Positions 59,755 through 63,682 of a DNA stretch of 64,000 nucleotides are shown piece after piece (the stretch's first letter is position 1; each line of letters opens with the position of its first letter). The notes under the pieces are model-generated. The model was not told where the DNA came from. It worked only from the letters and a program-made list of their open reading frames with translations, and ran no database searches. The position numbers were made by a program, and so were the translations under genes. The DNA is from Thermodesulfobacteriota bacterium (lineage in GTDB: Bacteria; Desulfobacterota_D; UBA1144; Nemesobacterales; UBA2774): contig OZ244197.1 of the NCBI GenBank assembly GCA_965216785.1, positions 1,824,001 to 1,888,000 on the forward strand, written 5' to 3'.

Positions 59755-59831
<77 letters not shown>

Positions 59832-60025
59832 ATTATTTCAGTTGCTTGCGCCGATTACACTTTATTGAATTCCAACCGTAAAAAATGATGTTCATATATA
59901 ACAGCTATATAGTTCTTGACTTTGGTATACCCCTATATTAGAATCGGATATAAAATGTTTGCTCCTTCTGACGGCTGAAATTCATAGTTTTCTTGGATCT
60001 ACTTCTACATCTGCTTACAACATAA

Positions 60026-60730
60026 ATGGGAGGCGGTCCTATGCGTTACTTATTAATCTTTGCTTTGGTTTTTTTATTCATCGGCTGCTCGAAAAACACC
60101 CATACTGAGCACACTCCCAGTGAGACTTCAGGATTATCCCAAACAATAGATGTCGGACCAGATGAACCGATTGAGTTGTCTTTTCAACACAAACTTCCTA
60201 TGGAGGGAGAAGTAACTTTCAGGGCCCCTTTCGCAGTGGCTAATGTGCCCAATAACAAAGGTGTTTTGACTCCTATCATGATTGGGTTTTCGATTGACGG
60301 CGATAAAGCATCTGAATATTATGCTGAAATTCAAGCAAAGGTATCAGAAGGCACAAGGCCTATTTCGGTAGGTTTTGAGGTCACATCTAAAACAACATAT
60401 GGTGAAGCCCTTGAAAAGGTGCAAACTGAAAGTGTGGAAGTCCCCGGACAATGCATTGTAGGATTTGATTTTTTAACCGGGGGCACTATATCTTCCGGCG
60501 AGCTTGAATGTATGCTTCGTATTGTTAATATCTCATCATATCTAACGCGGGATTCAGGCGGAACACCGCTTCACGGCCCTCTTGACCCTGACTGTCATTC
60601 ACACTGGGGTATCGGAACAACAAGTTGCCACTGTGAAACTGATGATTGTTGTGATGAGGGTGAAAAATGTGTGTGTAATGTATCTAAAGAAACTCGTTGT
60701 AGCGGTACTAAATTCTGTTGGTGTGATTGA
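60026..60730 (+). CDS. Lipoprotein with Cys-rich C-terminal domain (likely start ATG 60041)
   Basis: GGAGG before MRYLL; lipobox FIGC; 10 Cys in the last ~45 aa. Confidence 0.72.
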   Translation: MGGGPMRYLLIFALVFLFIGCSKNTHTEHTPSETSGLSQTIDVGPDEPIELSFQHKLPMEGEVTFRAPFAVANVPNNKGVLTPIMIGFSIDGDKASEYYAEIQAKVSEGTRPISVGFEVTSKTTYGEALEKVQTESVEVPGQCIVGFDFLTGGTISSGELECMLRIVNISSYLTRDSGGTPLHGPLDPDCHSHWGIGTTSCHCETDDCCDEGEKCVCNVSKETRCSGTKFCWCD

Positions 60731-60740
60731 TAAATTAGCT

Positions 60741-60796
60741 CTCATAACCCCAAGGCCCAGGGTTCAAATCCTGCCCCCGCTACTAATAATTTCAGT
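60741..60796 (+). repeat. Degenerate tRNA-fMet 3' fragment (attR-like)
   Basis: CTCATAACCCcAAGGcCcagGGTTCAAATCCTGCCCCCGCTACtAATaATTTCAGT. Confidence 0.88.
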
Positions 60797-61097
60797 AACT
60801 TACCCCTCGGCTGCTTCAATCCTTAGTTAACATGTCAGTGTATTCGTCATTCACTTGCAAATTTAGAATAATTACTTCCTTATAACCCAAGGAATCTTAT
60901 TGCCCGTTATCTTGTTTTGCGCCTCTTCTCACATAGTGGCTTTCGGCTCGAATCTAAACTACCTTAAGACCAGATGCTGTAATTTAGGTGACACGGAACT
61001 CTAATTCGGAATTAGAAGTTGTATTTCAGCTTTAATTATGATAATTGTCCTGATACGTATTACAATTGATTTAAAATGATAAGGATAAGGTAATTGA

Positions 61098-62390
61098 ATG
61101 CTATCTGATAAGACAACAGGAACGAAGTATAAAATAATAGTTATATGTCTGCTTGTTATTTCGATCTACATTACGGGCTGCGCAAAGACCCGCGTTCGTA
61201 ATGCTCTGCCCGCAAATCTCGAGGATCAAGTCAAAGTAATAGGATTTGAAGATGTGAAGGGCCTCAGGGCCTGGGCGGATAAATCAAATGAGGAGTTTAA
61301 TCAAGCAGCTGTACTTTCTATGAAAAGAGAAGTACAAGCATCTGCCGAGATAGGAGATGAAGTTTATTACTTAGCTATAAGCGGAGGGGGGGCCGATGGC
61401 GCGTATGGAGTCGGTCTTTTAAACGGATGGAGTGAGGCGGGTACACGGCCGGAATTTAAATTAGTTACAGGGATTAGCACAGGCGCTCTACTAGCTACTT
61501 TTGCTTTCCTTGGGTCTGATTATGATAACCAATTAAAAGAATCCTATACTAACTCCTCAGATGAAGATATCTACACAAAAAAGAGCATACTTACAGCTTA
61601 TTGGAGAGATGCGTTATTTGGTGTGGAACCACTTAAGAAGCTGATTGCCGAGAACATCAATCAGGATGTGCTGGAAGCAGTTGCAGCCGAGTATTTAAAG
61701 GGCCGTATTCTTTTAGTGGGAACCACTCAATTAGATGCTCAAAGATTAGTAATTTGGAATATGGGAGCTATCGCCGCAAGCGGGAAGCCCGGAGCGCTGG
61801 AGCTCTTTAGGTCCGTTCTTTTGGCTTCAGCAAGCATGCCTTCAATATTCCCGCCTGTTTTTATACCTGTAGAGGCAAATGGCAGTACCTATGAAGAAAT
61901 GCATGTTGACGGCGGAACTTTTACCGAGGTAATGCTTTATAATGAAGCTCTCTCTCCTATTCTTTCGCATGTAGAGGATGTAAAAAAAATAGTAGGAGAT
62001 GATGAGGAATTCGAGGAACTTCTTAATAGAAAAAGAGTGCTTTACGTGATTAAGAATGATCAAAAAGAACCGGAGTGGAGTGATGTTGAAGACAGAATTG
62101 TTCCTATAGCCGGAAGAGCAATTGGAACTCTAATCAAGTCTCATTATGACGGAGATATCTACAGGATCTATGTTCTTACTGAGAGGGATGAGATTTCATT
62201 TAACCTAGCTTCAATTCCGGGGGGAACCAATATAAAAGCAACCAACGGAATGTTTGATACGGTTTATATGCAGAAGCTTTATAACTTAGCCTATGAGAAA
62301 GCAAAAAACGGTTATCCCTGGGAGAAGTATCCTCCTGGCTATAAGCCTCAAAAAGAAGATGAGGGAGAGCCGCCAGCAGGTGCAAAATAG
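61098..62390 (+). CDS. Patatin-like phospholipase, lipoprotein
   Basis: Lipobox ITGC; SGGGADGA, GISTG, ASASMP..FPP, DGG. Confidence 0.92.
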   Translation: MLSDKTTGTKYKIIVICLLVISIYITGCAKTRVRNALPANLEDQVKVIGFEDVKGLRAWADKSNEEFNQAAVLSMKREVQASAEIGDEVYYLAISGGGADGAYGVGLLNGWSEAGTRPEFKLVTGISTGALLATFAFLGSDYDNQLKESYTNSSDEDIYTKKSILTAYWRDALFGVEPLKKLIAENINQDVLEAVAAEYLKGRILLVGTTQLDAQRLVIWNMGAIAASGKPGALELFRSVLLASASMPSIFPPVFIPVEANGSTYEEMHVDGGTFTEVMLYNEALSPILSHVEDVKKIVGDDEEFEELLNRKRVLYVIKNDQKEPEWSDVEDRIVPIAGRAIGTLIKSHYDGDIYRIYVLTERDEISFNLASIPGGTNIKATNGMFDTVYMQKLYNLAYEKAKNGYPWEKYPPGYKPQKEDEGEPPAGAK

Positions 62391-62392
62391 TT

Positions 62393-63451
62393 ATGGGCAA
62401 GCTCTTATCCAGAGTCTTAGCTGTATGTCTAATATTATTATTCCTCACCCCTTACACGCTATCTGATCAGGGGTTTGATCTCGGATCTCCCGATCCAGAA
62501 GGCACGGTTAAGGTTCAGGCGTATTTTGAGCTCCAGGATATAAATGAAATTAATGATGAAGTTGACACATTTGAATTCACTGGCGTGTTAACACTTAAGT
62601 GGCTTGATCCTCGAGAAGCTTTTGATCCTGCTCAAGTAGGAGTGAATGAGAAGGTCTTTCAGGGAGCCTATCAATTCAATGAGATTGCTACCGGCTGGTA
62701 TCCTCAATTCGTCCTTGTAAATGAATCAGGTCTGTTTGAGATAAGCGGAGTTACTCTGCGAATAGGGCCGGATGGGTCATCTACTCTAATGCAGACAATT
62801 AATGCTACCGCGGAGGTTAATCTGGACTTAAGAAAATTCCCATTTGATACACAGCGCCTGGAAGCAGTATTTCAAACTATTGGTTTTAATAAAGAGGAAG
62901 TATTACTGCAGGTTGAATCGGATATTAGCCCAAGAGATATGATATTACCTGTACCGCAATGGGATGTTTTGGAAGTAGATTCATTTGTAATAGAGCGCAC
63001 TACACCGTATTTAGGTAAAGGAGCAGTTTCTTCAGCTTTTGTGGTTGGAATAGATGTAGAGCGAAGGCCCTTTTATGTAATAAGGCTTGTTGTTATACCT
63101 CTTATTGTTATTGTGCTGCTATCGTTCTCAGTATTTTGGATGGATAGATCCTCTCTCGGCGACAGGCTCAATGTCTCATTTATTGGAATTCTAACAGGCG
63201 TTGCTTACCTACTTGTTACAAGTGATCATTTGCCTAACATTTCTTATTTCACACTGATTCACGGGTTCCTGAACCTTAGTTACCTGACAATGTGCGCAAC
63301 AGTGGTGATTAATCTCGTAGTGGGCGCACTGGATAAGAGAGGAAATACTGAACCCGGAGATCGCGTAGACCGTATTTGTCGCTGGGCGTTCCCGCTCGTT
63401 TATTTTGTACTGCTAATTGTAATGTTTGTTGCGGCAAATCTTTTCTATTAG
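62393..63451 (+). CDS. Prokaryotic pentameric ligand-gated ion channel (ELIC/GLIC-like)
   Basis: Signal peptide; LKWLDPR, WYP, Pro-loop LRKFPFDTQ, pre-M1 Arg, M1 IIP-like Pro, M2 DRLNVSFIGILTGVAY, M2-M3 LP.ISYFT, M4 AFP. Confidence 0.9.
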   Translation: MGKLLSRVLAVCLILLFLTPYTLSDQGFDLGSPDPEGTVKVQAYFELQDINEINDEVDTFEFTGVLTLKWLDPREAFDPAQVGVNEKVFQGAYQFNEIATGWYPQFVLVNESGLFEISGVTLRIGPDGSSTLMQTINATAEVNLDLRKFPFDTQRLEAVFQTIGFNKEEVLLQVESDISPRDMILPVPQWDVLEVDSFVIERTTPYLGKGAVSSAFVVGIDVERRPFYVIRLVVIPLIVIVLLSFSVFWMDRSSLGDRLNVSFIGILTGVAYLLVTSDHLPNISYFTLIHGFLNLSYLTMCATVVINLVVGALDKRGNTEPGDRVDRICRWAFPLVYFVLLIVMFVAANLFY

Positions 63452-63682
63452 CTATATGTATCATTATCCTTGCCAAAATAATTAACGATTAATGCCAGTT
63501 AAACCAGAACCTATCACACCTACATTGAAGACACAATAACCGAATTAATTAAGCGTCGCGCTATCCTGCGGCAATATTGTCAGGCCTCACTGTCTAAGCG
63601 CCTATAATTTCAGTAAATCACCCCCGAGCTAATTACCTTCCAAAAACGGGTATTGAGATTATCACCCTATGCGGTAAATTTT

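Follow-up and report, generated by a model that had tools for sequence, protein, structure and literature searches.

The patatin-channel locus beside tRNA-Met

Near the right end of the window, by which we mean the whole 64,000-nucleotide stretch of DNA that was analysed, a gene for a patatin-like acyl hydrolase is followed by a gene for a pLGIC (pentameric ligand-gated ion channel) subunit. The host, whose group we take to be the one called 'Dadabacteria', has a 3.1-Mb genome in which there are five genes each for pLGICs and for patatins. The features of the locus are listed below in window coordinates.

59755..59831, + strand: tRNA-Met(CAT), the integration hotspot (ARAGORN)
60026..60730, + strand: ORF of a separate small cassette, a predicted lipoprotein with a Cys-rich C-terminus
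60741..60806, + strand: degenerate 3' part of tRNA-Met plus flank (66 nt), an att-like scar at the left border of the patatin-channel cassette
61098..62390, + strand: patatin-like acyl hydrolase, predicted lipoprotein (Cys28; PF01734)
62393..63451, + strand: Pro-loop pentameric ligand-gated ion channel subunit (PF02931 + PF02932)
63604..63624, + strand: 21-nt att-like scar, 90% identical to 60786-60806, at the right border of the cassette

The patatin (430 aa) and channel (352 aa) ORFs are both complete, lie on the same + strand and are separated by a 2-bp gap, as an earlier sequence-only reading of this DNA had described. The same reading had placed them in AT-richer DNA next to a tRNA hotspot, and both observations hold. 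GC content is 0.425 for the patatin and 0.419 for the channel, with a GC3 of 0.36, compared with 0.47 and 0.505 +/- 0.07 in a set of 328 long ORFs (first 600 kb), which places the GC3 of the pair about two standard deviations below genome ORFs. The two genes occupy ~2.8 kb between a 66-nt tRNA-Met copy (60741-60806 vs 59787-59852, 83% identical over 66 nt, blastn E 4e-9) and the 21-nt scar, whose motif has no more than three occurrences genome-wide at <=3 mismatches, the third lying directly 3' of a tRNA-Ala. No integrase was found inside the 2.8-kb cassette. Scanning for promoters and terminators returned 16 sites, not clearly more than the 11.1 +/- 3.3 of shuffled sequence. The identical layout was found again in a near-identical strain from a separate study (run X5, contig 7), which rules out an assembly artefact. 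In that strain, the N-terminal stretch of the patatin is replaced (window 61084-61175) and a compensated one-base shift is present at 61230-61233.

The predicted lipoprotein at 60026..60730 sits alone between two tRNA-Met repeats and has no match in Pfam, NCBIfam or PADLOC. It lies outside the patatin-channel pair and was not seen adjoining the pair at two further loci (L011 and L111, see below). At the tRNA-Met hotspot of relatives (L185, i.e., G073:C101, as well as L186, L187 and L189), one- to few-gene cassettes are located between copies of the tRNA 3' half, of which there are seven in ~14 kb in G073, three in G070 and two in G078. An integrase-like ORF adjoins tRNA-Met in G078 and G099, and some of the cargo is common to several genomes. 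The tRNA-Met hotspot looks like a serial gene-capture site. On the other side of the pair, from window position 63653 onward (to ~1894000 in genome coordinates), a gene for a His-rich exported protein is followed by a three-gene cluster of higher GC, which we take to resemble a CzcCBA-type efflux system.

Sequence and predicted structure of the two proteins

The first protein matches the patatin family (PF01734, E 6e-22, 79 bits against a cut-off of 27.7) and contains an ITGC lipobox, a GGGADG oxyanion loop (G96-G101), the GISTG motif with Ser127 and the DGG motif with Asp271. Residues G96, G97, G101, G125, S127, G129, D271 and G272 are invariant in all 46 aligned relatives, in agreement with the earlier description of the enzyme as catalytically intact. 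The lipobox Cys28 is kept in 36 of the 46, and the hydrophobic N-terminus followed by ITGC suggests export as a lipoprotein. An AlphaFold model (pLDDT 90) gave potato patatin-17 as the best fold match; the matches to potato patatin and to CapE/CapV have a Foldseek E-value of 3e-12 and a TM-score of ~0.5, and no close relative was found among solved structures. The protein is predicted to be a lipid acyl hydrolase. The subfamily is widespread, occurring in 101 of 141 genomes of one alphaproteobacterial family.

The second protein matches both PF02931 and PF02932 above cut-off and shows the landmarks of the pLGIC family, including FPFD at 149-152 (the F/YPxD form in the Pro-loop motif table of PMC4795631), R224 and the M1 proline P236; its M2 helix contains D-1', R0', I6' and L9'. 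In the Pro-loop, P150 and D152 are invariant in 72/72 relatives. The structural model (pLDDT 73.5) consists of strands followed by four helices and matches known pLGICs with Foldseek E-values of 1e-21 to 1e-23, and a search of the ESM Atlas with the channel returned only pLGIC clusters. The NCBIfam model LGIC_1 scored 224 against a cut-off of 500, and the protein has no extra N-terminal domain.

The sequence-only reading called this channel ELIC-like, which is true of its membrane half but not of the whole protein. M2 aligns to ELIC without gaps (DRLNVSF vs ERLQTSF), and the Asp noted just before the M2 Arg is a constant feature, D-1' and R0' being present in all 72 relatives. On the other hand, the best sequence score of the whole protein is to GLIC, and the model is equidistant from DeCLIC, sTeLIC, GLIC and ELIC (21-24% identity to each). 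Position 6', which is Thr in ELIC, is Ile in 71 of the 72 relatives. The protein thus belongs to a channel clade, as yet uncharacterised, in which the pore has Asp-1' without exception and a conserved Ile6', which is unusual. F133 and F188 of ELIC, aromatic residues of loops B and C, presumably form its amine site. The first aligns to Ile (Leu in 66/72 relatives) and the second to a Ser at the edge of a gap, where the loop C alignment is uncertain; because these aromatics are replaced, amine gating of the ELIC type is not predicted. Cation selectivity is likely from the acidic -1' residue but is not safe to predict (PMC549065, PMC4795631). The host has four further pLGIC genes (genome positions 672799, 1299208, 2435178 and 2609956), whose products are 33-45% identical to one another and 24-28% identical to the cassette channel, with Gln at 0' in three and Lys in one.

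Co-occurrence and probable movement of the two genes

The sequence-only reading proposed, as one possibility, that the two genes form a module for enzyme-coupled signalling. In a dedicated system of this kind, the patatin would make or remove a lipid that gates or desensitises the channel, and the pairing would have been selected several times independently. Alternatively, two unrelated cargo genes may have met in an island by pure hitch-hiking, one descendant block being copied around afterwards with no shared process.

In a small clade, the genes do form a tight unit. Besides the host site at tRNA-Met, an orthologous pair (77-80% identity across 2.2 kb) lies 3' of tRNA-Gln (L011) and 3' of tRNA-Gly (L110/L111; the tRNA is seen in L111, and L110 ends inside it). 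In L011 and L111, a search on either side of the pair revealed no tRNA repeat, and the tRNA-Gln and tRNA-Gly sites are empty in the host genome. The gap between the genes is 2, 2 and 5 bp at the three tRNA sites, and dN/dS values of 0.10-0.14 for both genes indicate purifying selection. Fourfold-site differences amount to 0.36-0.46 for the patatin, 0.50-0.57 for the channel and 0.66-0.73 for four core genes. Since both genes are less diverged than core genes and are found at different tRNA sites, we infer lateral movement, and the pair likely moves as island cargo. It is also likely to be co-transcribed, the 2-5 bp gaps being only suggestive. The retention of this spacing at three sites fits a dedicated coupling, and the fact that it outlasted substantial synonymous divergence speaks against hitch-hiking. 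However, synonymous divergence differs between patatin (0.36 +/- 0.07) and channel (0.55 +/- 0.09), which suggests that the two have not always moved as one unit and counts against dedicated coupling. So does the channel at L191, which belongs to the same 100%-supported subclade and has no patatin in a genome that is 96% complete.

Beyond this clade, the survey was based on close relatives of the channel, which occupy 69 genome loci. A patatin of the same subfamily was detected within 6 kb in 7 of them, always on the strand of the channel, whereas ~0.1 of the 69 would be expected by chance from the patatin copies in those genomes. It is the direct neighbour at four loci (L011, L012, L038 and L068) and is located one to several genes away at L030, L063 and L046; gene order is swapped between L012 and L038. 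The adjacency is thus not unique to this genome, and both the enrichment and the swapped order favour dedicated coupling. So do the channel-adjacent patatins themselves, which represent at least five lineages on the patatin tree; such recurrence over unrelated patatin and channel lineages is difficult to reconcile with hitch-hiking. A second channel and patatin, from other clades and in divergent orientation, are encoded in the host at genome positions 2609956-2612767 (2.61 Mb), with DUF3313-like and AraC-like genes and further ones of the island type after them, and are also present in G099 of the same genus; they may likewise be read in favour of coupling.

The patatin is present anywhere in only 28 of the 69 channel genomes and absent in 41 (incomplete assemblies), which argues against a dedicated partnership. 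Among 75 metagenome patatin loci, 45 of which had >=800 bp downstream, a channel was found in two, both 87% orthologues, and 73 had none. In the class of the host (120 genomes), 11 genomes have the channel clade, 8 the patatin and 4 both, and the two genes are adjacent in all 4, three of which coincide with the L011, L012 and L038 records. Among 400 Planctomycetota (seed left out), 22 have a channel, 25 the patatin and 4 both, never on the same contig. In 140 genomes of the Methyloceanibacter family (seed left out), the numbers are 21, 100 and 16, with no case within 6 kb and no significant co-occurrence (p 0.79). Neither of these unselected surveys supports dedicated coupling, with 0 of 20 both-gene genomes co-locating the genes; most of the channels in them belong to more distant clades, and the close-clade subsets are 0/1 and 0/6, respectively. 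By contrast, Planctomycetota with the close channel clade have the patatin in 9 of 19 cases vs 25 of 400 in the even sample (kin not independent), and this raised co-occurrence is at odds with hitch-hiking.

On the channel tree, the patatin label requires 7 changes for 8 rows, a value reached or undercut in 126 of 500 shuffles. Both trees were quick searches with SH-aLRT support only, and length filters removed the frameshifted L068 channel from the channel tree and the L046 patatin from the patatin tree. Pairing is scattered on both, and a six-row clade beside L038 also has no patatin, a further point against dedicated coupling. The pair is not an obligate two-gene module, as evidenced by the counts of 7/69 and 2/75 and by the unclustered label on the channel tree; its link beyond the small clade is real but loose. 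Frameshifted channel or patatin genes occur in L068, L077 and L197, by decay or assembly error.

Fusions were searched for as well. No patatin-channel fusion was found in a weak search of 7992 candidates of 691-2000 aa; on the patatin side, 7995 candidates included one long patatin with thioredoxin-type domains and no channel fusion, and 12 long or odd channel matches scanned from the best 150 representatives had no patatin domain. One sequence of 581 aa (P0214) has a signal-like N-terminus and combines a beta-carbonic anhydrase (PF00484, E 2e-38) with a full pLGIC in one chain. It would be a proton-producing enzyme fused to a channel, but is a single sequence on one 5.4-kb contig that could be an artefact; our literature search returned no relevant paper on such a fusion.

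Both genes recur with a set of other genes, including sulfatases, FGE, HAD, DUF2092, DUF3313, DUF3604, OprB, MetA-type barrels and bestrophin-like genes. Of 18 channel loci having another gene of this pool, 5 contain the patatin, vs 2 of 51 without such a gene (p 0.011), the list of pool genes having been chosen post hoc after the loci were inspected. Although a rare gene, the patatin is the commonest recurring neighbour of the channel (7 loci), followed by sulfatase (6) and DUF2092 (4). Genome G007 has an island of the L038 type with patatin and no channel, and its patatin (56%) is the one closest to that of the cassette outside its clade. The pairing recurs above chance but is scattered on the trees, and it is found mostly where genes for other exported proteins form islands. 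Homologous predicted lipoproteins with no match in Pfam or NCBIfam are encoded near both channel and patatin in two different phyla (L038:2698-3792 and L063:6982-8049).

Genes lying directly next to channels of this clade form a very mixed set, and the tRNA hotspot gathers unrelated cargo, both of which favour hitch-hiking. We also considered that the channel might generally lie beside ester or amide hydrolases and sense acid. This idea was rejected: such hydrolases, a post hoc category for which 83 of 113 neighbours were scanned, most others labelled by likeness or earlier scans and few left unscanned, account for 17-19 of 113 neighbours next door vs 8-9 of 89 three genes out (p 0.22-0.28), a result that also agrees with hitch-hiking. 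The pair was probably excised from a sulfatase-type island, after which the two genes would have spread as one block. Judging from the hydrolases and outer-membrane channels of the pool, its role may be periplasmic ester scavenging. The survey thereby assigns the channel clade to a pool of genes for exported proteins of sulfatase islands; such a setting did not turn up in the literature searched.

Proposed function and comparison with known systems

The most reasonable hypothesis, to which we give a probability of about 0.5, is that the locus contains an intact, likely co-transcribed pair carried as island cargo between tRNA scars, and that the two genes, drawn from a common pool of genes for exported envelope proteins, are loose partners and not the enzyme and receptor of a dedicated system. 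In favour of loose partnership, the majority of relatives of either gene lack its counterpart. The patatin would be an acyl hydrolase of the Ser-Asp type, anchored to a membrane and facing the periplasm, and would free fatty acids from lipids or esters of other kinds. In the inner membrane, the channel would assemble as a homopentamer, probably conducting cations in view of Asp-1', and may be opened by a periplasmic cue independent of the patatin; our guess is pH or an ion, by comparison with GLIC, sTeLIC and DeCLIC. Any effect of the lipase would be at most modulatory, exerted on the channel's membrane domain by fatty acids or lysolipids. Both proteins are most likely co-expressed without depending on each other. 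Several points fit a tighter link than 'loose', namely the rank of the patatin as commonest neighbour, the same strand in all 7 loci, the 4/4 adjacency in the class of the host and the 9/19 Planctomycetota.

A dedicated signalling system is unlikely. Fatty acids and anionic lipids modulate both ELIC and GLIC, which is in its favour, but the effect described is that docosahexaenoic acid (DHA) inhibits ELIC and desensitises GLIC at membrane-domain sites (PMC9668969, PMC5378477). Because this published effect is inhibition or desensitisation, lipase products would be modulators and not agonists. The signalling proposal is partly supported, by a pairing that recurs far above chance; the loose link and the lack of agonism in published work speak against it. 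In its most specific form, a periplasmic patatin, recruited at least five times beside the Ile6' channel clade and moved in a two-gene tRNA cassette, would set gating via fatty acids or lysolipids; we regard this as rather doubtful. If true, such a lipase-tuned channel would for the first time provide a prokaryotic pLGIC with an enzyme partner and a modulator that are native to it. As of 2016, a biological role was known for no unicellular pLGIC (PMC4795631). A lipase and a channel kept 2-5 bp apart at three sites offer a concrete test of whether the modulation by lipids that ELIC and GLIC show in vitro has a native use. If that test were negative, the locus would represent ordinary island cargo together with an unstudied clade of channels whose pore has an odd residue.

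Pure hitch-hiking appears improbable as well, given the evidence on both sides described above. An anti-phage pair of a phospholipase effector and a membrane-depolarising channel, also proposed in the sequence-only reading, is very improbable: the tRNA hotspot, the role of patatins as CBASS effectors and the presence of CapE/CapV among the top fold matches would fit, but the CBASS lipase model scored 30.5 bits where 200 are required and DS2 24 where 400 are required, the channel has no PADLOC match, the patatin carries a lipobox, and the inspected or scanned neighbours of paired loci are sulfatase-island genes with no cyclase or sensor among them.

Each of the two proteins adds a new member to a known family, and no earlier report of their pairing was found in the literature searched (openly available papers; a prior mention is possible). 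Like potato patatin-17, CapV/CapE of CBASS and PlpD, the patatin has the Gly-rich loop, GxSxG, DGG and the fold; unlike them, it is predicted to be a stand-alone lipoprotein, shares 14-18% identity with the top matches and is far below CBASS cut-offs. The channel resembles ELIC, GLIC, sTeLIC and DeCLIC in its beta-sandwich and four helices, FPFD, pre-M1 Arg, M1 Pro, acid-Arg before M2 and Leu9', and differs from them in its low identity to each and from ELIC in Ile6' and in an aromatic box of loops B and C that has no counterpart. As in tRNA-targeted genomic islands, the pair has low GC3, lies 3' of a tRNA, is bordered by partial tRNA repeats and occupies different tRNA sites in relatives; the absence of an integrase from the cassette and the failure to find flanking tRNA repeats in L011 and L111 set it apart. 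In the main text of PMC549065 (Tasneem et al.), 'phospholipase' and 'lipase' have 0 occurrences. Compared with the prokaryotic pLGICs partnered by PBP-II or Cache proteins that are described there, the channel gene similarly adjoins a gene for an exported protein, but here the partner is an enzyme, and adjacency is ~10% rather than near-universal.
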